Source of the DNA: Yuukianura sp. NJ FZ-2021
Taxonomy: Eukaryota
DNA length: 64,000 bases
Assembly (NCBI GenBank): GCA_046563655.1
Contig: JAJCTO010000014.1
Location: 248,001 to 312,000 of the forward strand
Direction: 5' to 3'
The position numbers and the translations under genes were made by a program. Positions 3 through 49,705 of the stretch are shown here, piece after piece. The number at the start of each line of letters is the position of its first letter. The stretch's first letter is position 1. A model generated the notes under the pieces. It was given only the letters and a program-made list of their open reading frames with translations. It did not search any database and had not been told where the DNA came from.

Positions 3-275
3 GATTACGATGAAACTCGGTTCAAGAAATCCGCAATGAAGGGCATACCGCAGAGAGTTCAAAAAATGTCCATATCATTTGAAATGCTTGAGAAGGTTTT
101 ATTCAAGCAAAAAATTCTATCATGTACTCTACGCTCAATGCGCTCGTACAAGCACAAGATCTACAATATCAAGACAACAAAAGCTGCCTTGCATGCATTT
201 GATTCCAAGCGATACATTTTAAACGACGGTATTACAACCCTACCGTACGGTCATTATTTGATTAATAAAAACTGA
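3..275 (+). CDS. Protein-primed family B DNA polymerase, C-terminal end (Polinton-1)
   Basis: KGIP...IYNIKTTKAALHAFDSKRYILNDGITTLPYGHY matches the typical Polinton pPolB C-terminus (KGI...DDKR...TLPYGH). Frame is open from the window edge. AATAAA at the stop. Confidence 0.9.
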   Translation, partial: DYDETRFKKSAMKGIPQRVQKMSISFEMLEKVLFKQKILSCTLRSMRSYKHKIYNIKTTKAALHAFDSKRYILNDGITTLPYGHYLINKN

Positions 276-339
276 ATGTTCTATTTTCTGTATATTACAT
301 CCGTTTTTTATAAGCCAAACTATTTATTTGCAGCATATT

Positions 340-1042
340 TTAAACGAAAACCTTAATTATAAGTGTTATTGGGGAACGGCATATTGGGCATAGTGATTGA
401 GTTGTACAGCATTCCAGACATGTAGCCATATGACAGCACGGAGCGTACATGTAGGAGACTTGGCGCGTCATACAAATCTTGCATCTCAGAATCGACTTGA
501 GATTATCCAATTCTATGGAAAAGAAAATATATAAAAAATGGTACAGTACAATGCATAAGTTATGTTCAATTGCTTCACTTTTTTTCTACCTGTTTCGATA
601 CTTCCTCCGGACTCCATGTCACAAAGATCCTTGGTTGCCGAAACCTGTATTTTGCAAAATGCACGCTGTTAAAGAAGTGTTTAGTCTGATAATTTTGCTT
701 CCAATCATTTTCGCTTACATTCGTAACTGGGTGCTGTAGGATTAAATAGGCGCAGTTTGGAGCATGAATACGGTGTTCCAACCAAGGTGAATCGTGTTGA
801 CTCCAAGAAGTCAGACATAACCCACAGTAGAAACAAATTACAGCGTCCTCAAACTCGGTAAAAAAGAATCCAGCCTTTGCCAGATTTGCAACAGGAGGGA
901 AGCAATCCTTAACAGACGAATCGAAGCTCGATAACCTGCTTTCAATTGTTGCGTACTGTTCGAAGTCCGGACCTTTATTTGTTAATACTACCAGAGGCAT
1001 GTTGATCACCTCTACGTTGGTCGGTATTTCACTTTCTGACAT
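340..1042 (-). CDS. Inhibitor of apoptosis (one BIR + C-terminal RING), 3 exons: 1042-719, 665-590, 512-340 (~190 aa)
   Basis: BIR: RLSSF...LAKAGFFF...DAVICFYC...W...DSPWLEHRIHAPNC. GT-AG introns 718-666 (53 bp) and 589-513 (77 bp) join it in frame to CKICMTRQVSYMYAPCCHMATCLECCTTQSLCPICRSPI (C3HC4 RING), which the ORF track misses. Confidence 0.9.
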
Positions 1043-1073
1043 TGTTGTAGTATTAACTCCAAAAATCTACTGA

Positions 1074-1937
1074 TTAGAAAATGCTCCAAGCAGATTTCGC
1101 AACTGGGGTTTGATAATGCTCATCAGATGTATCCCCGGTCGCCGAAGCATCCGTTTCGCCTTCCATGCCATCCCTCTCCTCCTCCTCCTCCTCTTCAACG
1201 CTTTCTTCATCCTCCTCCTCTTCCTCCTCTTCGCCTTCTTCTAGCGGTTGGTTAACCATTGGAGTATTTTGGGCCAGTAGTGTTACCGTACTCAAATTTA
1301 GCTTGTTTCTAATATGAATTCCGAGCAACTCCTTTGGTATATTAACCTTTTTTAAAATGTAAATAAATGTTCGAACTCCTTTTGGTGGAGTGACCTTCGC
1401 CGGAGGCTTGAGAACGTATGCCAGCAATTCAATAATGTTTGCACCATTCCTGGGTACGCCTTTAAATGAAACTTGACCCGATTCATCCCAGGATATGTCA
1501 TTAAAAGCAGATGTAGAAAGGACTTGCATTATTTTCATGGCAGGTAGCTGGTACTTTTTTGGAAGAAACTTAGCTAGATGATTGTTGTACAAAGCCTGGT
1601 CGACGGTCGTTCCTGCATCGCGTTTTATATTTTCTTCGGGGTCCGTCTTTGTACTTTTGGGTGTCGTAGGAAGCTTTCCCGGTTTATAAACTTCAACCTG
1701 AAGTGGAGTGTTCATTAGAGCCGAAAAATTTGCGTGCAGTCCCTTCACCATACTATTGAATAAGGCTAATTTGATGTCATCGGAAATAGAATTCCATTTT
1801 GGAATATTTGTTGCTGCTGCTTGCTTCCTTTGGAATAGTTGAACTGATGCAGACTTATGTAAAAGTTGAGGAGCTCGTTGGATGGCAATAAGCTTTTCGT
1901 ACTCCAGATGCGGTATCAATTTCATTTTTTTGGACAT
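1074..1937 (-). CDS. Polinton-associated hypothetical protein with acidic C-terminal tract
   Basis: 287-aa ORF translationally coupled (TAATG) to the neighbouring gene. ISWDESGQVSFKGVPRNGANIIELL resembles a motif recurrent in Polinton accessory ORFs. Poly-Glu tract. Confidence 0.7.
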   Translation of the reverse strand: MSKKMKLIPHLEYEKLIAIQRAPQLLHKSASVQLFQRKQAAATNIPKWNSISDDIKLALFNSMVKGLHANFSALMNTPLQVEVYKPGKLPTTPKSTKTDPEENIKRDAGTTVDQALYNNHLAKFLPKKYQLPAMKIMQVLSTSAFNDISWDESGQVSFKGVPRNGANIIELLAYVLKPPAKVTPPKGVRTFIYILKKVNIPKELLGIHIRNKLNLSTVTLLAQNTPMVNQPLEEGEEEEEEEDEESVEEEEEEERDGMEGETDASATGDTSDEHYQTPVAKSAWSIF

Positions 1938-2284
1938 TATAAACCCACAAGGTGAGTTAATGCGTTAGCTGCAAGACCGCCAAGTATCGACAAAGCTGGT
2001 GTCACCAACAATGGAAGAAATCCACCTTTTTGTATTAAGAATTCCTTCTTCTTTTTAATAGAGAACTTCTTTGCAAGATTTCTGATACAACGCCTGTGCC
2101 GTTTGAGTTTATGTTTGTGTTGTTTAGTTAATGGCACATTACCTATTAACGTGTTTAGAGCAATTTCGGACAATGCTTCAATGTTGTCTTTTGAAGCCTT
2201 CTTTATTAACTTTTTTCGGCGCGGAGCTTTACACTTTTTAACCTCTTCGAGGAAGGTTTTGTTTCGAACTAAACGGTTTGTCAT
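1937..2284 (-). CDS. Small basic Polinton protein (PW-like) with C-terminal amphipathic peptide after a QKGG motif
   Basis: ALSEIALNTLIGNVPL, then K/R-rich segment, then QKGGFLPLLVTPALSILGGLAANAL. Typical small conserved Polinton ORF next to the ATPase. Confidence 0.8.
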   Translation of the reverse strand: MTNRLVRNKTFLEEVKKCKAPRRKKLIKKASKDNIEALSEIALNTLIGNVPLTKQHKHKLKRHRRCIRNLAKKFSIKKKKEFLIQKGGFLPLLVTPALSILGGLAANALTHLVGL

Positions 2285-2298
2285 TGTAAAAGAAACAC

Positions 2299-3026
2299 TT
2301 AACTTGGTAAGTAAATAATATGTTCTTCCTTTGGAAGGATTCCTGACTGTATTCGTAAATTATCGTGGCAACTAGGGTGCAGATTTAGGAACAAGTATGA
2401 ATAAGGCTGTCGAGTTGCCTCCTCGTAAGCGTTTAAAATTGCACTTGGCTTCCTTGGATTGAGTTGTCTACTGAGGTACATCACTTGTGATGGAAATGAG
2501 GGGGTCTTGCAAATCGTCATGTAATGTGTATTGAGACGAATATCCCTGGCATATTTTCCTTGCGGCAGCAAATTTTGAGAAAGGAAGATGACGGATATTG
2601 ACCTGGAATTCAAAAACGTTTTGTCAATTCTATGCAAATTTATCGTGGTAGTGCATTTGCAAAGTGATTTTTGCCTTACCTATGATGAACACCGCAAGTG
2701 AAAAGTTCTTGAACAGATTTGTCTTTCAATGAATCTGCCATTTGGTCATCGATGACTAGCAATGTATTATTGGCGTAGACTTCGTCCAATTTTACTCCCT
2801 CCATGCATCTAACTCTCGGGTCCATTGACTTCATGACGTCATAGCCGCTTTGATATACCTTATAGAATACAATTACGTCATCGATTCTAGGTGACACCAT
2901 CATGTCGAGGTTTTGAATAATCTTGCAAACAAATGTTGTTTTTCCAGACATTGTGCCGCCCGCTACAATAAATGTGAATGGATGTTTGAGTTGAATTTGA
3001 TCGAAATCGTACGTATGGTTCTCCAT
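2299..3026 (-). CDS. FtsK/A32-like genome packaging ATPase, 2 exons (3026-2680, 2602-2299)
   Basis: Walker A GGTMSGKT, Walker B LLVIDDQM. A 77-bp GTAAGG...TTCCAG intron (2679-2603) restores FTCGVHHR/SISVIFLSQNLLPQGKYARDIRLN, the conserved Polinton ATPase motif. Confidence 0.93.
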
Positions 3027-3772
3027 TAGGTTGATATCTTCTTAAAATGTAGAGTTAAAGTCACTTGACCTTTGTCAATTGGTAACTCCTCCCCAAACTC
3101 GTCGCACAGTACAATAGAAATGATGTCAAACTCGCTCCTTGAAATCGGTAGATAAAACGGATGAGCAAAAGTTTGAGTGACTGCTTGTCCTTCGTTTCCA
3201 ATTATGTTCACCATACGAAGCAGAGGCACAAGGGAAGATCCAACGACTTGAGACTCTATTATGTCACAGTATAGAAATATGTGATATCGCCCACCGAGTA
3301 TATCCGGTGGAGAATCGGCGATGAAGTAAGTATTTTGCTGATTCGAATTAAATTCAAGCGTACCATTAAATCCCAAAATGTAGGAGAGTTTCTCACTTAT
3401 TTCGATACTAAATCCGGCTTCTACTTCCAGGCTAACACGACACTTTGTTTCGTAGTATTTCAGGTTGGAAGGGACGCTGTGCTTTATAAAAGATGCGTTG
3501 ACCATGTGAACCAAATGCTCAACGGTACTGTAATGAAGTAAAGGAAGCTCTATTTTCCCGGCAGTCTTCGCCCCATTATACTCAATGAGGTTGTCTTTCT
3601 CAGCTCCGGTTAGAGTTTTTATAGAGCACACATAAGTTAACTCAGCAAGTCCAACCTCGTAACAGGACGGTTCAAGTTTGATTTTGGATGGAAGTTTAAT
3701 CCTGTAGTTACTAGTTCGGTTGTCCGAAAAATAGCGTGAGCCGTTCGACGGTAATGTAATATAGAATCCCAT
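3026..3772 (-). CDS. Minor capsid/penton-like protein (PZ)
   Basis: MGFYITLPSNGS...DNRTSNYRIKLP...YEVGLAEL at the N-terminus and FLYCDIIESQVVG...PLLRMV...YLPI...VTLTLHFK at the C-terminus, characteristic of Polinton PZ. Confidence 0.88.
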   Translation of the reverse strand: MGFYITLPSNGSRYFSDNRTSNYRIKLPSKIKLEPSCYEVGLAELTYVCSIKTLTGAEKDNLIEYNGAKTAGKIELPLLHYSTVEHLVHMVNASFIKHSVPSNLKYYETKCRVSLEVEAGFSIEISEKLSYILGFNGTLEFNSNQQNTYFIADSPPDILGGRYHIFLYCDIIESQVVGSSLVPLLRMVNIIGNEGQAVTQTFAHPFYLPISRSEFDIISIVLCDEFGEELPIDKGQVTLTLHFKKIST

Positions 3773-4770: not shown

Positions 4771-5322
4771 TTACATATTTAGTAAAACTTCTAAAATCTC
4801 ACAACACTGAATAATCCTGGTTACTCCTAAGTTTTGAGAGTCACCCCTGAAGCCTGTATTGTCGTAATGTAAATTAACTGCCGCGAAGTCTCTAACGATG
4901 TTGTCGTTTATATTTAGATCAAATTCGTCAAACCTGCTTAAAATTTTTTCGAATGATTCTCCCTTGACTCTGTGTATCAAGTAGTATAGCGCGAACTGTC
5001 CACAAGCATCGCTATGCTCTGGCTGAACTCGAAGGCTGCTCATCCTTATGACGTCGGATTTTGAGTAAAGAAAATTTACAAAGCTAGGATTGTAGAAGTC
5101 TATCGGCATTGCACAGCTGTCGAAGAATTCTACTTCCCTACCTCCACGTTTTTTGAACATGCTGATCCAATGCATTCCTGGTTCCTTAGAAGTTTGGGAG
5201 TTTGCTACGACTGCGAACTGATCCGAAGTAATAGCCTTTAATTTGTCGGACGGTAGAACTGCAGTTTGGTATGATCCATTGATGCTCCTATCCAATATCT
5301 CCATGATTTCGGTGGTATTCAT
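4771..5322 (-). CDS. Adenain-like (adenovirus-type) cysteine protease
   Basis: VANSQ...PGMHW (His), EFFDS (Asp), VQPEHSDACGQFA (Gln/Cys). Confidence 0.92.
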   Translation of the reverse strand: MNTTEIMEILDRSINGSYQTAVLPSDKLKAITSDQFAVVANSQTSKEPGMHWISMFKKRGGREVEFFDSCAMPIDFYNPSFVNFLYSKSDVIRMSSLRVQPEHSDACGQFALYYLIHRVKGESFEKILSRFDEFDLNINDNIVRDFAAVNLHYDNTGFRGDSQNLGVTRIIQCCEILEVLLNM

Positions 5323-6620
5323 TGTGCCACAACTGCTTGTCGGTACTTGTCAATCTCCAAAACCCCTTGTTGCTCAGACAGTATAACACAGTGCACTGAT
5401 TTTTCTAGTGCCACGCCAAACTGAACTTCAATTTTTACGCTCCCAGATTTTTCCAAATGAAGGAGTGCTTCGTTCCCAGTGGGCTGAAGAATGTCAAATG
5501 TAAACAGGGCATTGCTCTCTTTATAGTCGTCTCGCCCAAAAGATAGTCCAACATCGTGCCCAGCAATTCCTGTGCTCGTAAATAAAAGATAGTATGCCAA
5601 AAGACATTCGTTATTAGCAAAGTCCAATGACAACGGTCTAATAGGTATAGACACATTGTTGACTGAAATCGAAATGGACTTAATGTTGTAATGGTGGAAG
5701 CGAAACGGATTTGAATTGAAGTCTCCGTTGAACGCCAAGCTATCTACAAATCCAATAATGATGCGACTCGGCACAGTATTTGCGAAAAGGTTTTCTTCGA
5801 GAGCAGATGAATTTCCTTGAGCAATGGTAAAGTATTTCACTTCAGTGGACTTAAATGGGTATTGAGCAATTTCTCCCTTTTCTAAAAGTCTCTGGTGAGC
5901 CAAGATAATGCTAGGAAATGGCAGTTGTTTTCGAATGTAGTAGGTTGCAGATAAGAACTTGATTACTCCCTCCTCACCCTTCGCCTTTGAAAAAAGGGCA
6001 AATGCATCGGAAGATCGCGTGAGACAAATGCGAACGTTCACGTCATTCAATATGTATCGATGTTGATTGGCTAGGTTAAATCTCAATTTGTCAATTAGTT
6101 CCAAGTCTTTCGATTCGTTGATGTAGCTTTTTCGTTTTTCCCATCCTAGGTTTGTCGAGTCTGCAATTCCACCAACGGTGTCTTCATAGTACAAAGCACA
6201 TCCACCCTGGGAGGTTTTGTAATCCTTTCCGTAGCAAAGCAATGTTTCTATGTACGCACGATATGAGTAGCCATTATTGCTTGTGGACACAAGTTTTTCA
6301 TTGAAATAAATGTCCAGCTGTGAGAAGAGGGCGTGCATAAATAAATTCACAGTTCCAACTGTGGAATCCTTTCCTAGGTTAGCTCCGGCCTTCTGCGTCA
6401 CTTTTAGCTTGATTCGCAGGAAACTGTCAGTCAAATCCAGATAATGGTTACTATTACCCGGAATCTTAAATTCGATTTTGTTTGAAGCGTCCTGAACGTT
6501 TACAACTGGCTGATACTCTTCGTACATACTGTAGTCACAAGTCGTATCTGTTGCAGGGATTGAAAATAGGTCGACTTCTCCACGAATAGCCGGTTTAGAT
6601 CGTGAATGCAGCAAAGACAT
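5319..6620 (-). CDS. Major capsid protein (PY, double jelly-roll), 433 aa
   Basis: EVDLFSIPAT...IEFKIPG...YLDLTDSFL...NLFMHALFSQLDIY...YSYRAYIETLL...PSRIIIGFV...AFNGDFNSNPFRF...LEIDKYR match Polinton MCP motifs. Confidence 0.93.
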   Translation of the reverse strand: MSLLHSRSKPAIRGEVDLFSIPATDTTCDYSMYEEYQPVVNVQDASNKIEFKIPGNSNHYLDLTDSFLRIKLKVTQKAGANLGKDSTVGTVNLFMHALFSQLDIYFNEKLVSTSNNGYSYRAYIETLLCYGKDYKTSQGGCALYYEDTVGGIADSTNLGWEKRKSYINESKDLELIDKLRFNLANQHRYILNDVNVRICLTRSSDAFALFSKAKGEEGVIKFLSATYYIRKQLPFPSIILAHQRLLEKGEIAQYPFKSTEVKYFTIAQGNSSALEENLFANTVPSRIIIGFVDSLAFNGDFNSNPFRFHHYNIKSISISVNNVSIPIRPLSLDFANNECLLAYYLLFTSTGIAGHDVGLSFGRDDYKESNALFTFDILQPTGNEALLHLEKSGSVKIEVQFGVALEKSVHCVILSEQQGVLEIDKYRQAVVAQ

Positions 6621-7114
6621 TATTCAAAAATATCTAATTTGGTTCTCTTCGTTTTTGTTGGATTTGGTTTCGCTTTTCGTTTTTTTGAGACTTTGGGTTT
6701 GGATTTCTTAACCTTGTTCGTAGAGACTTGCTTCCTTAGTTTCGCAGGTTTCCTCTTTGTGTACGTCCGCTTCTGTTTATTACGAACACCGTTCCCGGTT
6801 TGACTTCCCACTACTGAATTCAAAAGATCAGAGCCGACGTTCTTCAAAAAACCAATGCTGTTTTCTTTCAAAGCCTTCTTTACTGACTGGCGTCCTCCCG
6901 CAATGCCACTCATAGTTTTAACTGCAGCTTCCTTTGCGCGAGGCATAATCCATTTCATGATGATTGGCAGAGCGTACTTGGCAATCCCGCCTAAGATGGA
7001 ACCAATCCCACCCCCTCTTTGACGTACCCCGTGAAACACAGGCATTCCATGGCCAATTTGGTCCCTTAAAGTATTGTAGTAGTGTTCGTGATTAAAGACG
7101 TACCTTTGCCGCAT
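6620..7114 (-). CDS. Basic virion core-like protein (PX-like) with QxGxG motifs
   Basis: QIGHG, FHGVRQRGGGIGSILGGIAKYALP, QTGNG, K/R-rich tail ending DIFE. Overlaps the MCP start (TAATG). Confidence 0.82.
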   Translation of the reverse strand: MRQRYVFNHEHYYNTLRDQIGHGMPVFHGVRQRGGGIGSILGGIAKYALPIIMKWIMPRAKEAAVKTMSGIAGGRQSVKKALKENSIGFLKNVGSDLLNSVVGSQTGNGVRNKQKRTYTKRKPAKLRKQVSTNKVKKSKPKVSKKRKAKPNPTKTKRTKLDIFE

Positions 7115-7423
7115 TGTAGATAGATGCTTTCTATTTCACTCGCGAAAGAGAACTGAGGATGATTTCGATTTGGGAATAATACGAGAATGTATACAGCATA
7201 CTAATATGATTAATATGACTATTAAGTCTACAATACACTAACCGGAAAGGAATTCAAGCATAGCTTTTGTGATATAAACAATTTCTTATGTTAAAAACGT
7301 TTATGTTTAAAATCTTGTTTTATACCAGCCCCCTGCAATCAGCACCTAGTAGTATTCTATTTACCTTGGTTTTTAACGAACATTTTGATTATTTGCGAGT
7401 ATATATTGAATTCACTTTGAATT

Positions 7424-7505
7424 AAGCTATGGTAAGTGGATTAGCGCAAACGATAGGGTGGTGGAATCAAATCAAGGGAACCAGGGGTCGATTCCCGTTA
7501 GCAGT
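7424..7505 (+). promoter_or_regulatory. tRNA-like RNA polymerase III internal promoter (A box + B box)
   Basis: A box-like TGGTAAGTGG (7430-7439) followed by ATTAGCGC. B box GGGTCGATTCC (7485-7495, one mismatch to GGTTCGANTCC) inside a GGG-loop-CCC T-arm. GCTA...TAGC ends. TATA-like run at ~7400. Confidence 0.55.
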
Positions 7506-7517
7506 AATAAAAAAAAA

Positions 7518-7760
7518 TTAAAAAAAAGTTAGGTTCCTACTCTATTTAAACTCTTCGTATAGTCAAGCATTCTTCTCTCACGGTTGCCTCAACCTGTAGT
7601 CCTCTGCTCTTTAAGTCATTGTTCCATTTCCACCATTCTGGAGAAGGTGGAATGAGACAATGACTTAGAGAGCGGCGGACTACAAGTTGAGGCAACCGTG
7701 AGAGAAGAATGCTTGACTATACGAAGAGTTTAAATAGAGTAGGAACTTAACTTTTTTTAA
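7518..7760. repeat. Long imperfect inverted repeat (~115-bp arms, 11-nt loop)
   Basis: AAAAAAAGTTAGGTTCCTAC...TTCCACC / GGTGGAA...GTAGGAACTTAACTTTTTTT. About 7 mismatches and 1 bulge, with a ~60-bp perfect stretch. Confidence 0.95.
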
Positions 7761-8072
7761 GTTTACATGGAAAATGTTACAAAGTGCATTTTCTCCTTCA
7801 GCCAAAAGGAACAATGCAGTACAGTGTGAATCTGTCTTTTTGTCATCACACCAGAAACCACTGAACGACATGAAGTTGTATTGCATATTCTGCCGAAAAA
7901 AACACATGATGTCTTTTGTGCCATCACTCCAAGAAGACGTCGTGTCAATTCGGCGCAAAAAACAATGTGACATGAATGGCAAAAAAGCATTCTGCATTTT
8001 TTGCCATCATGTCATCAAAACTTGGGGCAACTTGAGATTTGCGGGGGCAGAAGTGGCTTACCTCCCTCATCA

Positions 8073-11000
8073 CACGGGGGGTTCTAAAACCCGAAGCAAA
8101 CTTTTGAATCATTTAAAAAAAATTTCCCTCCTCACGAACTGAGGGGTTTTAGCGTTCAAATGTTTAAATTCTGAATGTGGAGAGAGGCGTCTCTGCCATC
8201 GCTGTACTATGAGTCCTTCCTAGACGTGATCAAATTTCCGACAATTCCAAAAACAACACAAGTGTTAGCGGTCAAAGTTTGAAGTTACGGCCCCATGCAA
8301 ACCGGGTAGAAACTTCGCTCACGGGGGTTCTAAAAGCCGATGCAAACTTTTGAATCATTTAAAAAATTTCCCTCCTCACGAACTGAGGGGTTTTAGCGTT
8401 CAAAAGTTTAAATTCTGAATGTGGAGAGAGGCGACTCTGCCATCGCTGTACTATGAGTCCTTCCTAGACGTGATCAAATTTCCGACAATTCCAAAAACAA
8501 CACAAGTGTTAGCGGTCAAAGTTTGAAGTTACGGCCCCATGCAAACCGGGTAGAAACTTCGGTCACGGGGGGTTCTATAAGCCGATGCAAACTTTTGAAT
8601 CATTTAAAAAAATTTCCCTCCTCACGAACTGAGGGGTTTTAGCGTTCAAAAGTTTAAATTCTGAATGTGGAGAGAGGCGACTCTGCCATCGCTGTACTAT
8701 GAGTCCTTCCTAGACGTGATCAAATTTCCGACAATTCCAAAAACAACACAAGTGTTAGCGGTCAAAGTTTGAAGTTACGTCCCCATGCAAACCGGGTAGA
8801 AACTTCGCTCACGGGGGGTTCTAAAAGCCGATGCAAACTTTTGAATCATTTAAAAAAAATTTCCCTCCTCACGAACTGAGGGGTTTTAGCGTTCAAAAGT
8901 TTAAATTCTGAATGTGGAGAGAGGCGACTCTGCCATCGCTGTACTATGAGTCCTTCCTAGACGTGATCAAATTTCCGACAATTCCAAAAACAACACAAGT
9001 GTTAGCGGTCAAAGTTTGAAGTTACGGCCCCATGCAAACCGGGTAGAAACTTCGGTCACGGGGGGTTCTATAAGCCGATGCAAACTTTTGAATCATTTAA
9101 AAAAAATTTCCCTCCTCACGAACTGAGGGGTTTTAGCGTTCAAAAGTTTAAATTCTGAATGTGGAGAGAGGCGACTCTGCCATCGCTGTACTATGAGTCC
9201 TTCCTAGACGTGATCAAATTTCCGACAATTCCAAAAACAACACAAGTGTTAGCGGTCAAAGTTTGAAGTTACGGCCCCATGCAAACCGGGTAGAAACTTC
9301 GCTCACGGGGGGTTCTAAAACCCGAAGCAAACTTTTGAATCATTTAAAAAAAATTTCCCTCCTCACGAACTGAGGGGTTTTAGCGTTCAAAAGTTTAAAT
9401 TCTGAATGTGGAGAGAGGCGACTCTGCCATCGCTGTACTATGAGTCCTTCCTAGACGTGATCAAATTTCCGACAATTCCAAAAACAACACAAGTGTTAGC
9501 GGTCAAAGTTTGAAGTTACGGCCCCATGAAAACCGGGTAGAAACTTCGCTCAAGGGGGGTTCTAAAAGCCGATGCAAACTTTTGAATCATTTAAAAAAAA
9601 TTTCCGTCCTCACGAACTGAAGGGTTTGAGCGTTCAAAAGTTTAAATTCTGAATGTGGAGAGAGGCGACTCTGCCATCGCTGTACTATGAGTCCTTCCTA
9701 GACGTGATCAAATTTCCGACAATTCCAAAAACAACACAAGTGTTAGCGGTCAAAGTTTGAAGTTACGTCCCCATGCAAACCGGGTAGAAACTTCGCTCAC
9801 GGGGGGTTCTAAAAGCCGATGCAAACTTTTGAATCATTTAAAAAAAATTTCCCTCCTCACGAACTGAGGGGTTTTAGCGTTCAAAAGTTTAAATTCTGAA
9901 TGTGGAGAGAGGCGACTCTGCCATCGCTGTACTATGAGTCCTTCCTAGACGTGATCAAATTTCCGACAATTCCAAAAACAACACAAGTGTTAGCGGTCAA
10001 AGTTTGAAGTTACGGCCCCATGCAAACCGGGTAGAAACTTCGCTCACGTGGGGTTCTAAAAGCCGATGCAAACTTTTGAATCATTTAAAAAAAATTCCCT
10101 CCTCACGAACTGAGGGGTTTTAGCGTTCAAGAGTTTAAATTCTGAATGTGGAGAGAGGCGACTCTGCCATCGCTGTACTATGAGTCCTTCCTAGACGTGA
10201 TCAAATTTCCGACAATTCCAAAAACAACACAAGTGTTTGCGGTCAAAGTTTGAAGTTACGGCCCCATGCAAACCGGGTAGAAACTTCGCTCACGTGGGGT
10301 TCTAAAAGCCGATGCAAACTTTTGAATCATTTAAAAAAAATTCCCTCCTCACGAACTGAAGGGTTTTAGCGTTCAAAAGTTTAAATTCTGAATGTGGAGA
10401 GAGGCGACTCTGCCATCGCTGTACTATGAGTCCTTCCTAGACGTGATCAAATTTCCGACAATTCCAAAAACAACACAAGTGTTAGCGGTCAAAGTTTGAA
10501 GTTACGGCCCCATGCAAACCGGGTAGAAACTTCGCTCACGGGGGGTTCTAAAACCCGATGCAAACTTTTGAATCATTTAAAAAAAATTCCCTCCTCACGA
10601 ACTGAAGGGTTTTAGCGTTCAAAAGTTTAAATTCTGAATGTGGAGAGAGGCGACTCTGCCATCGCTGTACTATGAGTCCTTCCTAGACGTGATCAAATTT
10701 CCGACAATTCCAAAAACAACACAAGTGTTAGCGGTCAAAGTTTGAAGTTACGGCCCCATGCAAACCGGGTAGAAACTTCGCTCACGGGGGTTCTAAAACC
10801 CGATGCAAACTTTTGAATCATTTAAAAAAATTTCCCTCCTCACGAACTGAGGGGTTTTAGCGTTCAAAAGTTTAAATTCTGAATGTGGAGAGAGGCGACT
10901 CTGCCATCGCTGTACTATGAGTCCTTCCTAGACGTGATCAAATTTCCGACAATTCCAAAAACAACACAAGTGTTAGCGGTCAAAGTTTGAAGTTACGGCC

Positions 11001-20000: not shown

Positions 20001-22411
20001 TGCCATCGCTGTACTATGAGTCCTTCCTAGACGTGATCAAATTTCCGACAATTCCAAAAACAACACAAGTGTTAGCGGTCAAAGTTTGAAGTTATGGCCT
20101 CATGCAAACCGGGTAGAAACTTCGTACAAGGGGGGTTCTAAAAGCCGATGCAAACTTTTGAATCATTTAAAAAAAATTTCCCTCCTCACGAACTGAAGCG
20201 TTTTAGCGTTCAAAAGTTTAAATTCTGAATGTGGAGAGAGGCGACTCTGCCATCGCTGTACTATGAGTCCTTCCTAGACGTGATCAAATTTCCGACAATT
20301 CCAAAAACAACACATGTGTTAGCGGTCAAAGTTTGAAGTTACGGCCCCATGCAAACCGGGTAGAAACTTCGGTCACGGGGGGTTCTATAAGCCGATGCAA
20401 ACTTTTGAATCATTTAAAAAATTTCCCTCACGAACTGAGGGGTTTTAGCGTTCAAAAGTTTAAATTCTGAATGTGGAGAGAGGCGTCTCTGCCATCGCTG
20501 TACTATGAGTCCTTCCTAGACGTGATCAAATTTCCGACAATTCCAAAAACAACACAAGTGTTAGCGGTCAAAGTTTGAAGTTACGGCCCCATGCAAACCA
20601 GGTAGAAACTTCGCTCACGGGGGTTCTAAAAGCCGATGCAAACTTTTGAATCATTTAAAAAAAATTTCCCTCCTCACGAACTGAGGGGTTTTAGCGTTCA
20701 AAAGTTTAAATTCTGAATGTGGAGAGAGGCGACTCTGCCATCGCTGTACTATGAGTCCTTCCTAGACGTGATCAAATTTCCGACAATTCCAAAAACAACA
20801 CAAGTGTTAGCGGTCAAAGTTTGAAGTTACGGCCCCATGCAAACCGGGTAGAAACTTCGCTCACGGGGGTTCTAAAACCCGATGCAAACTTTTGAATCAT
20901 TTAAAAAAATTTCCCTCCTCACGAACTGAGGGGTTTTAGCGTTCAAAAGTTTAAATTCTGAATGTGGAGAGAGGCGACTCTGCCATCGCTGTACTATGAG
21001 TCCTTCCTAGACGTGATCAAATTTCCGACAATTCCAAAAACAACACAAGTGTTAGCGGTCAAAGTTTGAAGTTATGGCCTCATGCAAACCGGGTAGAAAC
21101 TTCGTACAAGGGGGGTTCTAAAAGCCGATGCAAACTTTTGAATCATTTAAAAAAAATTTCCCTCCTCACGAACTGAAGCGTTTTAGCGTTCAAAAGTTTA
21201 AATTCTGAATGTGGAGAGAGGCGTCTCTGCCATCGCTGTACTATGAGTCCTTCCTAGACGTGATCAAATTTCCGACAATTCCAAAAACAACACAAGTGTT
21301 AGCGGTCAAAGTTTGAAGTTACGGCCCCATGCAAACCGGGTAGAAACTTCGCTCACGGGGGTTCTAAAAGCCGATGCAAACTTTTGAATCATTTAAAAAA
21401 ATTCCCTCCTCACGAACTGAGGGGTTTTAGCGTTCAAAAGTTTAAATTCTGAATGTGGAGAGAGGCGACTCTGCCATCGCTGTACTATGAGTCCTTCCTA
21501 GACGTGATCAAATTTCCGACAATTCCAAAAACAACACAAGTGTTAGCGGTCAAAGTTTGAAGTTATGGCCTCATGCAAACCGGGTAGAAACTTCGTTCAA
21601 GGGGGGTTCTAAAAGCCGATGCAAACTTTTGAATCATTTAAAAAAAATTTCCCTCCTCACGAACTGAGGGGTTTTAGCGTTCAAAAGTTTAAATTCTGAA
21701 TGTGGAGAGAGGCGACTCTGCCATCGCTGTACTATGAGTCCTTCCTAGACGTGATCAAATTTCCGACAATTCCAAAAACAACACAAGTGTTAGCGGTCAA
21801 AGTTTGAAGTTACGGCCCCATGCAAACCGGGTAGAAACTTCGGTCACGGGGGGTTCTATAAGCCGATGCAAACTTTTGAATCATTTAAAAAAAAATTCCC
21901 TCACGAACTGAGGGGTTTTAGCGTTCAAAAGTTTAAATTCTGAATGTGGAGAGAGGCGTCTCTGCCATCGCTGTACTATGAGTCCTTCCTAGACGTGATC
22001 AAATTTCCGACAATTCCAAAAACAACACAAGTGTTAGCGGTCAAAGTTTGAAGTTACGGCCCCATGCAAACCAGGTAGAAACTTCGCTCACGGGGGTTCT
22101 AAAAGCCGATGCAAACTTTTGAATCATTTAAAAAAAATTTCCCTCCTCACGAACTGAGGGGTTTTAGCGTTCAAAAGTTTAAATTCTGAATGTGGAGAGA
22201 GGCGACTCTGCCATCGCTGTACTATGAGTCCTTCCTAGACGTGATCAAATTTCCAAGAATTCCAAAAACAACACAAGTGTTAGCGGTCAAAGTTTGAAGT
22301 TACGGCCCCATGCAAACCGGGTAGAAACTTCGCTCAAGGGGGGTTCTAAAACCCGATGCAAACTTTTGAATCATTTAAAAAAAATTTCCCTCCTCACGAA
22401 CTGAGGGGTTT
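8073..22411 (+). repeat. ~245-bp satellite DNA array, block 1 (~58 monomers)
   Basis: Head-to-tail near-identical monomers (GCAAACTTTTGAATCATTTAAAAAAATTTCCCTCCTCACGAACTGAGGGG...). Measured periods 244-247 bp, varying mainly in homopolymers. Confidence 0.99.
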
Positions 22412-23099
22412 CCAATAGTAGCGTTGTCGGATTCTTGCAAACGTCTTGGTGAATCCTAGGTGTCCGGCAATTGCGTCGTCGTGATAAGCGTGTAAAATTT
22501 CCGGTGTCATGACTGCGGGAAGGACAGGAATGGGTTGCCCGTCACGATTGTGGTGATATAGAATATCGCAAATGATTGTATAACCTTTGGGTTTGCTACC
22601 ATGTGATTTAATAAGCTTCAGCTTAATTGACTTGATGGTGTCATCCTTATCCTGGGACTCGGCTAGCTGGAGTGGCTGAATCGATGCAATTGATACATCG
22701 GCTGATTGATTTGAGACTTCATTTGGTCGTCCTGTTTCTATAGCTGGGCAACGCGACAATGCGTCAGGAACATGATTTGTTGAGCCTTTAATGTAATAAA
22801 TCCCATCTACATCGAATTCAGAAATTTTGAGTGCCATGCGTGTTAACTTCGGGCTAATTTCCTCCTTTTTAGCGTTTTGAATCCAACATAGCGCATGGTG
22901 ATCGGTAAAGATTTTGAATCGATGTCCATCTAAAAACTGTCGAAACTTCTTCAATGCGAATGTAATCGCCAGCAGCTCGAGTTCTGTTGTTGTCCATTTC
23001 TGCTCGGCTGGAGTGAGCGTGCGGGAGACAAAGGCAATCGGTTTTTCTTGTCCGTTGTGTATTTGTGAAAGGACTGCTCCGATGCCTTGCGTGCTTGCT
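22412..23099 (-). pseudogene. Internal fragment of a Ty3/gypsy pol gene (RNase H to integrase zinc-binding start), no LTRs
   Basis: ASTQGIGAVLSQ...PIAFVSRTLTPAEQKWTTTELELLAI...FTDHHAL...NHVPDALSR (Ty3 RNase H), then HDDAIAGHLGFTKTFARIRQRYYW (HHCC first half). Both ends of the listed ORF are satellite-derived. Confidence 0.92.
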
Positions 23100-26000
23100 C
23101 CGATGCAAACTTTTGAATCATTTAAAAAAAAAATTTCCCTCCTCACGAACTGAGGGGTTTTAGCGTTCAAAAGTTTAAATTCTGAATGTGGAGAGAGGCG
23201 ACTCTGCCATCGCTGTACTATGAGTCCTTCCTAGACGTGATCAAATTTCCGACAATTCCAAAAACAACACAAGTGTTAGCGGTCAAAGTTTGAAGTTACG
23301 GCCCCATGCAAACCGGGTAGAAACTTCGGTCACGGGGGGTTCTATAAGCCGCTGCAAACTTTTGAATCATTTAAAAAAAATTCCCTCACGAACTGAGGGG
23401 TTTTAGCGTTCAAAAGTTTAAATTCTGAATGTGGAGAGAGGCGTCTCTGCCATCGCTGTACTATGAGTCCTTCCTAGACGTGATCAAATTTCCGACAATT
23501 CCAAAAACAACACAAGTGTTAGCGGTCAAAGTTTGAAGTTACGGCCCCATGCAAACCAGGTAGAAACTTCGCTCACGGGGGGTTCTAAAAGCCGATGCAA
23601 ACTTTTGAATCATTTAAAAAAAAATTTCCCTCCTCACGAACTGAGGGGTTTTAGCGTTCAAAAGTTTAAATTCTGAATGTGGAGAGAGGCGACTCTGCCA
23701 TCGCTGTACTATGAGTCCTTCCTAGACGTGATCAAATTTCCAAGAATTCCAAAAACAACACAAGTGTTAGCGGTCAAAGTTTGAAGTTACGGCCCCATGC
23801 AAACCGGGTAGAAACTTCGCTCACGGGGGTTCTAAAACCCGATGCAAACTTTTGAATCATTTAAAAAAATTTCCCTCCTCACGAACTGAGGGGTTTTAGC
23901 GTTCAAAAGTTTAAATTCTGAATGTGGAGAGAGGCGACTCTGCCATCGCTGTACTATGAGTCCTTCCTAGACGTGATCAAATTTCCGACAATTCCAAAAA
24001 CAACACAAGTGTTAGCGGTCAAAGTTTGAAGTTATGGCCTCATGCAAACCGGGTAGAAACTTCGTACAAGGGGGTTCTAAAAGCCGATGCAAACTTTTGA
24101 ATCATTTAAAAAAATTTCCCTCCTCACGAACTGAAGGGTTTTAGCGTTCAAAAGTTTAAATTCTGAATGTGGAGAGAGGCGTCTCTGCCATCGCTGTACT
24201 ATGAGTCCTTCCTAGACGTGATCAAATTTCCGACAATTCCAAAAACAACACAAGTGTTAGCGGTCAAAGTTTGAAGTTACGGCCCCATGCAAACCGGGTA
24301 GAAACTTCGCTCACGGGGGTTCTAAAAGCCGATGCAAACTTTTGAATCATTTAAAAAAATTCCCTCCTCACGAACTGAGGGGTTTTAGCGTTCAAAAGTT
24401 TAAATTCTGAATGTGGAGAGAGGCGACTCTGCCATCGCTGTACTATGAGTCCTTCCTAGACGTGATCAAATTTCCGACAATTCCAAAAACAACACAAGTG
24501 TTAGCGGTCAAAGTTTGAAGTTATGGCCTCATGCAAACCGGGTAGAAACTTCGTTCAAGGGGGGTACTAAAAGCCGATGCAAACTTTTGAATCATTTAAA
24601 AAAATGTCCCTCCTCACGAACTGAGGGGTTTTAGCGTTCAAAAGTTTAAATTCTGAATGTGGAGAGAGGCGTCTCTGCCATCGCTGTACTATGAGTCCTT
24701 CCTAGACGTGATCAAATTTCCGACAATTCCAAAAACAACACAAGTGTTAGCGGTCAAAGTTTGAAGTTACGGCCCCATGCAAACCGGGTAGAAACTTCGC
24801 TCAAGGGGGGTTCTAAAAGCCGATGCAAACTTTTGAATCATTTAAAAAAAATTTCCCTCCTCACGAACTGAGGGGTTTTAGCGTTCAAAAGTTTAAATTC
24901 TGAATGTGGAGAGAGGCGACTCTGCCATCGCTGTACTATGAGTCCTTCCTAGACGTGATCAAATTTCCGACAATTCCAAAAACAACACAAGTGTTAGCGG
25001 TCAAAGTTTGAAGTTATGGCCTCATGCAAACCGGGTAGAAACTTCGTACAAGGGGGGTTCTAAAAGCCGATGCAAACTTTTGAATCATTTAAAAAAAATT
25101 TCCCTCCTCACGAACTGAAGGGTTTTAGCGTTCAAAAGTTTAAATTCTGAATGTGGAGAGAGGCGTCTCTGCCATCGCTGTACTATGAGTCCTTTCTAGA
25201 CGTGATCAAATTTCCGACAATTCCAAAAACAACACAAGTGTTAGCGGTCAAAGTTTGAAGTTACGGCCCCATGCAAACCGGGTAGAAACTTCGCTCACGG
25301 GGGGTTCTAAAAGCCGATGCAAACTTTTGAATCATTTAAAAAAAATTCCCTCCTCACGAACTGAGGGGTTTTAGCGTTCAAAAGTTTAAATTCTGAATGT
25401 GGAGAGAGGCGACTCTGCCATCGCTGTACTATGAGTCCTTCCTAGACGTGATCAAATTTCCGACAATTCCAAAAACAACACAAGTGTTAGCGGTCAAAGT
25501 TTGAAGTTATGGCCTCATGCAAACCGGGTAGAAACTTCGTTCAAGGGGGGTACTAAAAGCCGATGCAAACTTTTGAATCATTTAAAAAAAAATTTCCCTC
25601 CTCACGAACTGAGGGGTTTTAGCGTTCAAAAGTTTAAATTCTGAATGTGGAGAGAGGCGTCTCTGCCATCGCTGTACTATGAGTCCTTCCTAGACGTGAT
25701 CAAATTTCCGACAATTCCAAAAACAGCACAAGTGTTAGCGGTCAAAGTTTGAAGTTATGGCCTCATGCAAACCGGGTAGAAACTTCGTACAAGGGGGGTT
25801 CTAAAAGCCGATGCAAACTTTTGAATCATTTAAAAAAAATTTCCCTCCTCACGAACTGAAGGGTTTTAGCGTTCAAAAGTTTAAATTCTGAATGTGGAGA
25901 GAGGCGTCTCTGCCATCGCTGTACTATGAGTCCTTCCTAGACGTGATCAAATTTCCGACAATTCCAAAAACAACACAAGTGTTAGCGGTCAAAGTTTGAA

Positions 26001-29000: not shown

Positions 29001-29273
29001 AGCCGATGCAAACTTTTGAATCATTTAAAAAAAATTCCCTCCTCACGAACTGAGGGGTTTTAGCGTTCAAAAGTTTAAATTCTGAATGTGGAGAGAGGCG
29101 ACTCTGCCATCGCTGTACTATGAGTCCTTCCTAGACGTGATCAAATTTCCGACAATTCCAAAAACAACACAAGTGTTAGCGGTCAAAGTTTGAAGTTATG
29201 GCCTCATGCAAACCGGGTAGAAACTTCGTTCAAGGGGGGTTCTAAAAGCCGATGCAAACTTTTGAATCATTTA
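23100..29273 (+). repeat. ~245-bp satellite DNA array, block 2 (~25 monomers)
   Basis: Same monomer and orientation. Ends at GAATCATTTA, the TSD of Polinton-2. Confidence 0.99.
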
Positions 29274-29560
29274 AGTTAGTGTTAAATGATTACTAAAAGA
29301 ATGTAGGTCAAGCCCCCCTCCCCACAGCCCCATCCCCTGTTCGTTCACCCCGTTCCATTGTTGAAAAGTTTAGCCCTGAGGCAATGAGTGGTGGAATGAA
29401 ATTTAAATTTGCAAATTAAAAAAATATTAATAAACAATAATTTGTTTAATTAATTAGTTATTATTTGTATTTATAATTTTAAATTTAATTTAGTTTTAAA
29501 AGTGTTATACAAAAAAAATAAAAATAAAAATTTTTTTTCGAGATTCGAACTCGCGTCAAC
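29274..29560 (+). repeat. Left terminal inverted repeat of Polinton-2
   Basis: First ~140 bp are roughly 90% identical to the reverse complement of 52505-52649. A degenerate AT-rich match continues to the B box at 29541-29551. Confidence 0.9.
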
Positions 29561-29864: not shown

Positions 29865-31332
29865 TCATTCCCATTTGCCATTAAACAGATGACGTTTCTT
29901 CAGCACTGGAAACTAATCCCGTAGGATTCAAGTCCAGTGCTGAATACTGCGGATTTGTAACCGCAAATGGGAACGAAACCATGTTCCCGCGAAGAAATGG
30001 ATTGGTGCTGGTGCTGGGTGCTTGGTACCTAGTACCGGTACCTGAAATAAAAACAAAATTTGATTAAAAAAAAAGTTGCAAAAATCTGCAATGCAGTTTT
30101 TTGCAAGCAAACAGAATGACAATGGAGAGAGATGCGGGATGCTTACTTCTACGTCCGCACTCTCCACTCTACTCTCCACTCTCATTCTGTTTACTTGCAA
30201 ATAAAATTGCATTGCAGATTCTGAATAAAGTAGCTTTCGCTACTTAATAAAAACAAAAACAAACCTTGCCTTGGCCGCGAATACTCCGGATGCTGCCGCT
30301 TGGCAGCCAGTCTTGCCGACTGCCGTAACGGCTCCAAGTGCTGCACCATCGTGGGGCTGGTCAGGTTGGGGTATTCACCCCACGGTGGTGGGGCCAAGCC
30401 AGTCGCTGCTACTGCAGGGGTTGTTGGAGCTGGACGGTGGGGCAGCTGGGGTGGGGCAGTGGTGGCACGTCGTGGGGCAGGAGGCGTAGCTGGATGTGGT
30501 GTTGGTGGGCGGGGCCTAAATCCCCGATGTTGGTGGGGCTCTCTCCACTCCCGAACCCACCCAATCAACCACCGAATCCCTGCACCCACGACACATGTTG
30601 TCACTACTGAAACAAAGACAAATCATGAATTAGTGATTTGTATGGAATGTGACAACGAAAAATGAATTTTCTTTAACATGTTGGGTACTACCTCGCTTAT
30701 TGACAAAAATGAAAAAAAAAACATCTTGTACCAATTTCGGTATAAAAAAAAATCGAATGTAAAATTAAAAAATTCAGCTGTATTGTTAAGACTACGATAT
30801 CATGAAATGAAAGAAACTCTTTCTTTTTGCAAAATCGAAAAAACATGAGGTATTACTCAACCTGTTAAAGAAAATCAAAGTCAATAAACCTTGCTAACTC
30901 TGAATCGTTCCAATTTTAGTAAAAAAAAAAGACTTACACGCCAACCATGCTGCCAAAATGATGGCAGCAGTCTCCCACTCTGTTGCAGGGACCCCCTCTC
31001 GTACTTGGTCAGGCTGGGGGCACTTGAGGGTGTCAGGGGGAGCCACGAGAAGATGCAGCGCCCATTGGGGGTATCCCCAATGGGGTGGCATACCCCCACC
31101 CCGTCTTCACGCCTCGACCAAGCGCATCGCTCCCCCAGACACTGAACACAGGGCCAGTTCAGGTCACACTTCGGTGGGTCCCCAAACCCCGTGGCTCCAA
31201 ACAATACCACGATTGCCAAATGGCCCAGCAACATTCGAAAATTTTCCTAAAAATAAATTTTAATTAATAATTTTTTAGTTTTTAGTTTATTTTAGTTTAA
31301 TTGGTTTAATTTTAATTATAAAAACTTACCAT
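29865..31332 (-). CDS. Putative type I membrane protein A: signal peptide, PSI-like Cys domain, TM, Pro-rich tail (multi-exon; one apparent frameshift; 3' exons uncertain)
   Basis: ATG|GTAAGT at 31332. Exon 31246-30938 MENFRMLLGHLAIVVLFGATGFG-DPPKCDLNWPCVQCLGERCAWS...C needs +1 nt in a C/G run near 31070 to continue LLVAPPDTLKCP...TAAIILAAWLA. Exon 30606-30265 LVTTCVVGAGIRWLIGWV...Pro-rich...YPNL. Confidence 0.6.
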
Positions 31333-31633: not shown

Positions 31634-31714
31634 AAAAAAAAAGTTGAACCACTCGAGATTTGAACCCACGGCAACAAAAATTTTCAGAACACGCTCATAC
31701 CACTGAACCACTTG
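31634..31714 (-). promoter_or_regulatory. tRNA-like A box/B box element
   Basis: On the minus strand: TGGTTCAGTGG (31710-31700), then GGTTCAAATCT (31666-31656), then a T9 run. No proper cloverleaf, and an internal T5. Confidence 0.5.
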
Positions 31715-31814: not shown

Positions 31815-33743
31815 TTATTTTAAATCTAAAATTAAATTGAAATTCGTGTTGGTGTTGGCCTCCATGGCTTCTAGGCGCTGTAATTCCTCCTGCCATTGCC
31901 GAATAGCTAGGCTCCTATGTCCCACGACCAGATTTGGACTGAATGGGTGCTGGAACATTAATCCGTCCAGAGTTGTGACACGACCTAAATTTTAAATTTC
32001 ATTATTAAGCTTGAAAAATATGAAAAAAAAATGCAAAAAATTGTTTCTTACTCATTGCTACATAAACCAACTGAGGCGCCTGACTAGTAAACATTGTTGA
32101 TGTGTCACCGGGTGCTGGATTCCCCACCACTACCCGTTTGCAAGTTTTGCCCTATAAAGAAAAAACAAATGATCAAATGTTTTTAGCATAGTCTTGAGGT
32201 AATTCACCTGTGCCTTGTGACATGTCATTCCCCAAGCCAGTTGCAATGGGAATAACTTTCTTTGGTAAGTTCTTCCTGCATACTTGTCATAGTATGGCAT
32301 CACAACCGGAACTATAGGAATGTCTCTCCTGAGTGGATAAGCAACGCCAAAATATGAATCAGGACGCACGAAAATAAAGTTTGGAACTCCATTTTCATCC
32401 ACATCAGTTGAGACTTGAGTCACGGTGACAAGAGCTCCGTTGTAAAGACCTTTTAGAAAAATTCAAAATTAGTCTTTTTAAAATTAGTATGGTTAGGACG
32501 GCATACCTGCAGCGACAAAAAGATTTTTTGTTAACATGCAGCGGGCTCCAACCGCCAGCTTCAATTTGTCGCCAGTCTTTGACTCATCTCGCAAGTCGAT
32601 GGCGTCCACCTCCGTAATGTCTACGCCCAGCTCCGAAATTCGTTTTCTAATTTTTTCACATTTTTAATAGTATGCATAAATTCAGTTTCTTACAAAGACT
32701 TACTCATTGTAACTATTCACGTTGTGATTTTCTGCAAAGAGAACAGGAGCCGAGAGGAAAAGTGAAAGCTCTTCAGCAGTCAGCAGTGAAGAAAGTTTTT
32801 CCAAAGACCTCAATTGCAGCGCTTCAATGTCTTCTTCTTCTAGTTGCCCGCATCTTACGCGCGACAGAATTTCTTTTAACTTGGCTTGAGATTCATCTTG
32901 TCGCATAATTTCTGTCAGTATGACGCATTTGTTAAAATGTGCATACGCCTTGATCCCGTCCAAGCACAAGCCTTCGGCGTGCATTGACTTGTAATATAAG
33001 GGTCTATCTGCCACTGGACTTAACCTTTAACATCAAACATCACTATTATACGGTTTATACATTTAAAAGTGTAACTTACTGTGCCAGATCACCCATGGCC
33101 AACACCGTAAGACCTCCAAACGGATCTTGTGTCCTGAAAATTGCGCGGAGTCTTCGCTCCATGTATCCTAGGAGACCAACCCCAAGCATAAAAACTTCGT
33201 CAATTATTAACAGCCGTACTCCTTTCAGTCTCTCCCGTGGAAAGTCCACGTATTTTTCCGGGTCGTGTTTTCGATGGCCTAAACTCAATGAGAGACCACT
33301 GTGAACAGTTATTCCTCCCGCGTTAAATGCTGCTGCGCCCGTAAATGCAAAAACACGGAAACGAATCTTTTTCTTTTCGAGATAGCCTCTTAAATAGTGT
33401 ATAATGAAGCTTTTTCCTGAAATTTTGAAAAAAAAAAAGTTAATTTCAAATGAAATTTCTAAAGAAATTTTGACTTGCCTGTCCCAGCAGCGCCGTGACA
33501 CAAAATGAATTCCTGGTTACGAGCTTCGAGTGCTTCTGTGACCAGTTTCGCTGTTTGACGCTGCTTGGAATTGAGCTGCTCGAGTACCACTTCCGGAAAT
33601 ACTCTGTTCACCGGCTGTGTTTTGCTGTACTCGATAAATGTCATTGGGTTGCTAGGTACCAACTTTGGAACAACTTTTCCTGTAGTTTCGTCTTTCTGCA
33701 ATTTTCTTTTGAGTGAACTTTTATCCATCCTTACTGTCTGCAA
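31815..33743 (-). CDS. PIF1-family SF1B DNA helicase, 7 exons
   Basis: Introns 33478-33417 (GC-AG), 33079-33025, 32703-32647, 32506-32450, 32207-32152 and 32051-31985 give one open frame with GAAGTGKS, FTGAAAFNAGGITVHS, LLIIDEVFM, FGGLTVLAMGDLAQLSPV, LTEIMRQ, LAVGARCMLTKNL..AGLYNGA, FPLQLAWGMTCHKAQGKT, YVAMSRVTTLDGL. Confidence 0.93.
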
Positions 33744-41289: not shown

Positions 41290-41352
41290 AAGAACCATTT
41301 ACAACATTCCTCAGTCTTGTGTCCAGCGTTAGTCGGTAGAGTCAGTCTCAAA

Positions 41353-49197: not shown

Positions 49198-49705
49198 ACG
49201 AAGATGTCTGATTTTTCCAAAAACAACAGGACTTAATGTTTTTAGCAATGATTTATTTTGGTTTGTTTTTTTGTCCACAACAACCATGGAAATGTTTTTC
49301 AATGGTTGACAAACAAAACAAATGAAAAGAAACAGCGATGAAGAAGTCACCCGTTCTTTGCAAAATCAAACTCAAGCGCCATCTCAATTCTGTTTGTTGA
49401 AATCTCAAAACAAACAAAATGTAAACTCAACTTGCACGTATGAAGTTCACAGTCCACTTTTTTTTCAAAACCTTCAACACTGCTATTGTGGTTAGTTGGT
49501 GCAGGGGTACAGTAAACAAGATAGAGAGAGAGGGAAAGACGCCAGTTCGAAACCGGATTTTTTTTATTTTTTTTCTCTTTTATTTATGCATAATATGTTT
49601 CTAAAATAATTTAACAATTTCAATTTGTATTTTTATAATAATTTAATATTTAATTAATTAATTTAAAATTTGAAATATAAATTTCAGTTTCATTCCGCCA
49701 CCCAT
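49198..49705 (+). repeat. Diverged internal copy of the right subterminal region and inner TIR
   Basis: Colinear with 50968-51148 plus 52202-52537 (e.g. GAAGAAGTCACCCGTTCTTTG, AATGTAAACTCAACTT, GACGCCAGTTCGAAACC, TTTCATTCCRCCACYCAT). Confidence 0.85.

Follow-up and report, generated by a model that had tools for sequence, protein, structure and literature searches.

Structured RNAs made by RNA polymerase III (Pol III), such as VA RNAs, EBERs and TMERs, are classic viral tools against host RNA defences and are known in a handful of vertebrate viruses. Adenoviruses have widespread relatives that live integrated in genomes, the Polintons, and to our knowledge little is known about how these handle RNAi or dsRNA sensing. 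Polintons and adenoviruses are both listed as bamfordviruses (PMC10328495). An adenovirus has one or two VA RNAs (PMC4140831, PMC2777419), in which box A forms part of the terminal stem, box B belongs to the apical stem and a U4 run acts as terminator; Dicer cuts the terminal stem, and an origin from a tRNA gene has been hypothesised (PMC7589676). The TMERs of MHV68 are described, in sections of one article, as Pol III RNAs of 200-250 nt encoded near the genome end, in which a tRNA-like element is followed by two pre-miRNA hairpins and which are processed by tRNase Z and Dicer (PMC4838037). Pol III genes on Polinton-like elements have also been recorded, namely 558 tRNAs together with other Rfam matches in PLVs and virophages (sections of PMC12220804) and predicted tRNA genes in a figure legend of an adintovirus paper (PMC8502044). 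As far as these sections go, the tRNA genes of PLVs and virophages are decoding tRNAs found by ARAGORN or Rfam and are read as codon compensation, whereas the units in related Polintons described below are found by neither and have the A box paired in a long stem. A VA-RNA-like layout of small RNA genes is not yet described for Polintons. In line with the original prediction, which did not recognise such an RNA as described, our literature search found no report of Polinton genes for VA-like RNAs or for Pol III hairpins, with subscription journals and tables S11 and S12 of PMC12220804 (PLV ncRNA matches) being places that might hold one.

The window, a 64-kb stretch of DNA, contains from position 1 to about 8071 a Polinton on the minus strand, Polinton A, which abuts a 246-bp satellite (Table 1). 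Its expected identity as a Polinton is supported by an integrase (rve, Pfam E 6.5e-16), double-jelly-roll capsid homologues (175 homologues of the capsid protein, the best 83% identical), a BIR gene and an ATPase that is A32/FtsK-like. The window does not extend to PolB or to the other end of the element, and a related element (L008) has a PolB-like ORF beside the equivalent genes. ORFs of 147-161 aa, equivalent to the 164-aa basic ORF, precede the capsid gene in the relatives. The split of the ATPase over two ORFs points to an intron or a broken gene. Since the Polinton genes stop at 7114 and the satellite begins at 8073, the head and hairpin considered here are located in a non-coding element end of about 960 nt.

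Table 1 Features of Polinton A and of its non-coding end, with positions in the 64-kb window.
Feature	Position	Strand	Basis or remark
BIR (inhibitor-of-apoptosis) domain ORF, 155 aa	575-1042	-	Pfam E 4e-19
Packaging ATPase region, two ORFs	2676-3026 and 2299-2637	-	2676-3026, weak A32/FtsK-like Pfam match; 2299-2637, no Pfam match
ORF of 248 aa, possibly penton	3026-3772	-	no Pfam match
ORF of 183 aa, possibly protease	4771-5322	-	no Pfam match
Major capsid protein gene, 433 aa	5319-6620	-	weak Pfam double jelly roll match
Small basic ORF, 164 aa, first of the capsid-side block	6620-7114	-	head and hairpin upstream of its start, opposite strand
TATATAT motif, about 24 nt upstream of head	7400-7406	+	read from sequence; putative promoter role
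Putative tRNA-derived head, promoter-box segment without own 3' arm or terminator	7424-7505	+	
A-box-like motif TGGTAAGTGG	7430-7439	+	motif scan
B-box-like motif GGGTCGATTCC	7485-7495	+	motif scan
A-rich linker (A9 7509-7517, A8 7520-7527)	7506-7527	+	A8 pairs with T7
Left hairpin arm, pyrimidine-rich	7515-7628	+	repeat search, RNA fold
Hairpin loop region	7629-7650	+	five extra pairs leave a 12-nt loop
Right hairpin arm	7651-7764	+	repeat search, RNA fold
T7 run, candidate Pol III terminator, part of palindrome	7752-7758	+	
Small hairpin, possible stem-only unit relic	7958-8016	-	T6 within 3' arm
End of Polinton A	8065-8072	.	satellite from 8073; siblings diverge at 8065 and 8071

An A box, a B box and then an A-run (7509-7527), as had been predicted, are present upstream of the small basic ORF. 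The A box of the head, TGGTAAGTGG, is one base shorter than the A-box consensus and is nearly identical to TGGTAAAGTGG, the A box of one unit of a related Polinton (L015a). The B box, GGGTCGATTCC, agrees at 10 of 11 positions with the consensus GGTTCGANTCC, and the start-to-start distance of 55 between the two boxes is a tRNA-like spacing. Scanning both strands of 445,481 nt for A+B pairs gave 11 matches, compared with a mean of 4.15 in 20 mononucleotide shuffles, one of which reached 11. Such pairs are not rare over the scanned DNA, so that a single match is weak taken alone; in the 958-nt terminal region about 0.009 pairs are expected. The tRNA-like character ascribed to the head was not supported, with no tRNA gene found by ARAGORN in the 64-kb window, no match to the Rfam tRNA model on 7400-7530 even at E<=10, and a fold of the head alone no better than that of shuffles (z -0.49). 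The first run of at least four Ts after 7410, and hence downstream of the boxes, is indeed the T7 run, as originally predicted. Its value as an argument for termination is small, because T7 mirrors A8 of the left arm and so belongs to the palindrome, and because a head part free of T4 combined with an arm free of both T4 and A4 would arise by chance with a probability of about 0.11. Matching T-runs also exist on the minus strand of the palindrome.

The hairpin is well beyond chance expectation. An inverted-repeat search found two 114-nt arms that are 92% complementary and 22 nt apart, matching the predicted stem of about 115 bp, and five further pairs inside the spacer give a stem of 114-119 bp. 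RNA folding of 7424-7760 yielded -206.4 kcal/mol, compared with -80.2 ± 5.6 kcal/mol for 100 shuffles, none of which was as good (z -22.4). Mismatches between the arms amount to 9 of 114 ungapped pairs, comprising five that are G-U on the plus strand, two that are G-U on the minus strand and two transversions. Within the hairpin core, four of seven are G-U compatible on the plus strand, the same count as in the original prediction; as an argument for a plus-strand RNA it weighs little, the bias of five versus two being not significant. The arms are 8% mismatched against a divergence of about 4% among sibling copies over the hairpin, which gives no sign of selection on pairing. The arm sequence had been proposed as a probe for targets, and it matched none: no similarity was found to any gene in the 64-kb window, to the head or to any unit of the relatives, and the window holds no second copy of either head or hairpin. 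Rfam matches on the hairpin (mir-4716, MIR1023 and others; 15-34 bits) were rejected as lying well under gathering scores, since any long hairpin would give such matches, and a closing stem of 7408-7419 with 7782-7795, noticed by eye, was dismissed as a 7-bp chance match.

Contigs from the sample contain many diverged copies of Polinton A. These sibling contigs come from three DNA runs of one sample, possibly the source of the window assembly, and are for that reason not independent support; contig depth gives no copy number in these data, and uncovered stretches are uninformative. The contigs are colinear with the window over 7205-7324 and over 7378-7496, the latter stretch covering the head with 9 differences, and one contig crosses the hairpin loop (7538-7740) with 8 differences and no gaps. 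Further contigs join the right end of the hairpin to 7958 or 7976 and depart from the window sequence at 8065 and 8071 into dissimilar flanks. The loose sibling end at 7205 resembles window 7145-7172 by eye, suggesting an indel rather than a new flank. Among the 40 of 197 differences listed, a C>T change at position 7594 re-establishes pairing with A7685. Head and hairpin are kept in the same Polinton flanks in the siblings, in at least two variant forms, and none of the joints listed skips either of them. Their presence in the same flanks of diverged copies argues against a private MITE insertion and supports their membership of the element family.

A capsid alignment used as query on metagenome contigs retrieved 80 loci related to Polinton A; in a viral contig collection, the single capsid protein found no relative and the alignment found one locus with 36% identity. 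Eight loci, with capsids 47-80% identical, extend for 300 nt or more beyond the small ORF on its upstream side. Pol III-type units occur upstream of the small ORF in five of the eight (L002, L003, L004, L005 and L015; capsid 63-80%), and no units occur there in L008, L016 and L017 (capsid 47-59%), where another gene abuts the small ORF. L002, L015 and L005 contain two units each and L003 and L004 a single one, which makes eight. The units are about 75-120 nt long, and in all of them a terminal stem, roughly 13-30 bp in length, includes a paired A-box-like motif, the apical part contains a B-box-like motif, and a run of T5-T8 directly follows the 3' arm. In the units of L002 and L015 the stem begins 11-12 nt before the A box, which would place its start close to the expected Pol III start. 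ARAGORN found no tRNA genes in 16 of the loci (L001-L010 and L012-L017), and the Rfam tRNA model had no match on L001-L017 at E<=1.

MAFFT did not bring all eight units into register, and for the table of pairs the MFE folds were anchored at their A boxes. Among the four L002 and L015 units, two-sided changes are present in 8 of 26 pairs. Their covariation score is 0.41, compared with 0.17 in shuffles (none of 500 reached 0.41), and 92% of cells are paired, compared with 29-42% with slid partners, in what is a small set of four sequences, and covariation alone does not part RNA pairing from DNA palindromes. The covarying stems, combined with T-runs that are one-sided and immediately follow the stem, point to an RNA product. 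Comparison of the sequences supports the presence, at the same place in related Polintons, of Pol III-type structured units with covarying stems. The two-unit cassettes of L002 and L015 are colinear but inverted relative to each other, suggesting that the cassette is inherited with the element. Units point outward in three loci and inward in three; the head in the window points outward, like those of L002 and L005. A strict scan of the 445 kb, combining a B box with a stem of at least 12 bp and a T-run of T5 or more, returned six matches, four of them in the upstream stretches of L002 (two), L004 and L015 and none in 63 distant loci.

Long stems are present in the unit region of three lineages, namely the window, L003 and L004. 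The stem of the L004 unit measures 41-58 bp, and L003 has an extra hairpin with 64-nt arms in the unit region. One arm of the latter derives from the 5' arm of the neighbouring unit (z 10.3), suggesting that long hairpins arise from units in this region. Two further observations concern the contigs of the relatives. Between the units and the contig end are arrays of short palindromic repeats (L003 1000-1260, L015 107-190, L004 2-107), candidate subterminal binding sites, and the far end of the L003 contig (1-120, minus strand) resembles by eye a Mur-ligase-type P-loop (GTNGKT), which may be flanking DNA or reflect a chimeric assembly.

The units of the relatives resemble adenovirus VA RNA I and II, as these are described in the sections cited above, in having box A in the terminal stem, an apical box B, a U-run, one or two tandem genes and a pre-miRNA-like stem length. 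They differ in length, at about 75-120 nt compared with about 160 nt for VA RNA. Three scans, covering window positions 6500-8700 and 7400-7530 with a threshold of E<=10 and L001-L017 with E<=1, gave no match to a VA RNA family of Rfam. The window locus itself is unlike VA RNA, in which no counterpart of its 114-bp hairpin exists and the boxes are surrounded by a terminal stem that the window lacks. The VA layout is shared by the eight units in five relatives, but not by the head in the window, which is without terminal stem, 3' arm and terminator; the T7 run there comes after the separate hairpin. MHV68 TMERs, as far as the cited sections describe them, are the closest match to the order seen in the window, that is, a head, then a hairpin, then a T-run. 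Unlike the TMERs, with hairpins of pre-miRNA size, the window has a single stem of 114-119 bp and an A-rich linker between head and hairpin. The order proposed on the TMER model therefore stands, while the head has no tRNA fold, which makes a tRNase Z site doubtful, and the stem is not of pre-miRNA size.

The head is placed where the units are, 310 nt from the start of the small ORF. Unlike the units, it lacks a 3' arm, a terminal stem and its own terminator; its sequence similarity to them is weak (z 2-3), and its A-B spacing is 55 compared with 42-47 in four units of L002, L004 and L015 in the same scan. A BLAST search of 7115-8072 against the 80 loci gave just one 24-nt A-rich match. Model R1, built from four units, weakly finds the L004 unit (E 0.011), the L003 unit (E 0.5) and L005a (E 1.5), and did not find the head in either search. 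The head appears to be a weak, decayed member of the unit class. The same model scored the small hairpin at 7958-8016 with 20.4 bits (E 9e-5 in a 958-nt search); plain sequence similarity of this hairpin to the units of the relatives is not significant, and it may be the stem-only relic of a unit.

We tentatively favour the reading that head and hairpin are the rearranged small-RNA cassette of this Polinton family, with the head driving a hairpin RNA of about 335 nt. The cassette of the clade would be situated in the non-coding stretch between the element end and the capsid-side genes, and would comprise, in the relatives, either a single gene or a pair of genes of Pol III type that are derived from tRNA, measure about 75-120 nt and have a VA RNA or shRNA layout. 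In the family of the window, the first unit would have kept its A and B boxes and lost its 3' arm and terminator, and a 114-119-bp hairpin that lacks its own promoter would occupy the second position of the cassette. We infer both this descent of the head and its use: were the locus expressed, transcription by Pol III with TFIIIC would begin at about 7420 and, the head having boxes but no terminator, would continue across the A-rich linker and then the hairpin as far as T7. The long near-perfect stem of the resulting RNA would be a Dicer substrate, and the RNA might act as an siRNA source or as a competitor for the RNAi or dsRNA-sensing machinery. The two-ORF ATPase of this Polinton A copy and its position in satellite DNA count against the rearranged cassette, and the window locus may be either a functional long-hairpin derivative or a wreck. 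A broader version, which we consider doubtful as a whole, would have a clade of Polintons encode VA-RNA-like Pol III genes, often in tandem, whose stems repeatedly grew into long hairpins (64 nt in L003, 114 nt in the window), here joined to a terminator-less head to form a TMER-like RNA that feeds or jams host RNAi.

A possible, somewhat less probable account than the rearranged cassette starts from the same decayed head and denies the locus a purposeful product. The palindrome would then be a DNA-level product of strand-switching or fold-back, formed while the AT-rich end was replicating or recombining, and would have spread with the family. The state of the head, devoid of arm, fold and terminator and missed by model R1, fits this account, as do the placement of T7 within the palindrome, the non-significant G-U bias, the arm mismatch exceeding sibling divergence and the hint of decay in the possible relic at 7958-8016. 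Palindromes are also found in the unrelated second Polinton of the window, where a subterminal hairpin at 30078-30224 reaches z -14 and large arrays stand inverted at 51.2-52.1 kb, which makes a DNA-level origin a live rival, and subterminal palindromic repeats occur in the relatives. The account fits less well with a B box that still agrees at 10 of 11 positions where boxes would scarcely be expected by chance, with the lack of any T4 or longer run across 322 nt although the left arm is 40% T, and with the recurrence of long stems in the unit region of L003 and L004 as well as the window. A palindrome with a function as DNA, acting as a cruciform in replication, packaging or integration, or B boxes that bind TFIIIC as a chromatin barrier against flanking heterochromatin, would suit a locus that stands between the element end and the first genes and adjoins satellite, and tDNAs can have barrier activity. 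The covarying stems of the relatives and their one-sided T-runs directly after the stem speak for an RNA product instead, and we regard this as the least probable of the explanations.

An assembly from foreign insertions would make the palindrome a MITE or foldback element and would take head plus A-run for a tRNA-derived SINE, both lodged in the only dispensable part of the Polinton. In its favour, the locus combines A and B boxes, an A-rich tail after the head and a long palindrome, unit orientation varies among the relatives, and other tRNA-like fragments occur in the second Polinton (49480-49570, 52275-52390, 31634-31714). This origin is nevertheless improbable. Unlike SINEs and MITEs, neither head nor hairpin has a target-site duplication by eye or another copy in the window; both stay linked to Polinton flanks in the siblings, in at least two variant forms with no listed joint that skips one, and units are co-located in five relatives from other samples, among them an inherited two-unit cassette. 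The same lack of a duplication and the same siblings with head and hairpin speak against the dispersed MITE, absent from sibling Polintons, that the original prediction had named as the opposing case. Equally improbable is a hairpin RNA made by Pol II, through outward read-through or host read-in from the satellite, that would feed host siRNA or piRNA silencing and leave the head irrelevant. A near-perfect 114-bp stem would be a Dicer substrate whichever polymerase made it, and the element is multi-copy and embedded in satellite DNA; no promoter evidence accompanies such a transcript, however, and it would leave unexplained why the relatives have units of Pol III type in the corresponding position. 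Compared with these alternatives, the rearranged cassette remains the explanation that we tentatively prefer.

If a clade of Polintons does encode VA-RNA-like Pol III genes, Pol III decoy or miRNA-precursor RNAs of the VA type would be no invention of adenoviruses but an old or recurrent trait of adenoviruses and Polintons. A conserved VA-like cassette would offer a testable handle on the dealings of Polintons with RNA defence and on the origin of VA RNA, and would add a class of non-coding genes that is missed by ORF- and tRNA-based Polinton annotation. The cassette in the relatives is the more valuable result; the gain from the window is smaller, its version being rearranged and possibly dead.

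The window also contains a second, complete Polinton of another lineage (29257-52666), inserted like Polinton A in the 246-bp satellite. It is bounded by terminal inverted repeats of about 240 bp (29257-29496 and 52420-52666) and has an integrase-like stretch near 39057-39356 and a capsid homologue (41317-42243) that is 29% identical to that of Polinton A. Its 1219-aa PolB-like ORF (44250-47909) is 26% identical (E 5e-74) to the L008 ORF beside the capsid genes (41-3211), and both ORFs have a weak Pfam endonuclease VII match in their N-terminal halves (E 0.005 and 0.002, respectively). The subterminal hairpin at 30078-30224 has a stem of about 65 bp (-84 kcal/mol), and the inverted arrays at 51173-52134 consist of a 14-bp repeat with 220-nt arms at 93%. 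The tRNA-like fragments mentioned above, two on the plus strand (49480-49570 and 52275-52390) and one on the minus strand (31634-31714), contain A/B-box-like motifs and T-runs; two of them are copies that share 77% identity, and no fragment has a fold superior to that of shuffles. Decayed Pol III units or pieces of SINEs are possible sources of these fragments. A fragment of a PIF1-like helicase (33076-33501, minus strand; Pfam E 1e-12) is possibly a piece of a nested Helitron. The satellite arrays themselves extend over 8073-29274 and 52657-64000, with matches of 93-96% and a higher-order period of 491, and are interrupted at 22411-23100 by a retrotransposon fragment with RNase H and integrase zinc-finger domains (ORF 22394-23170).
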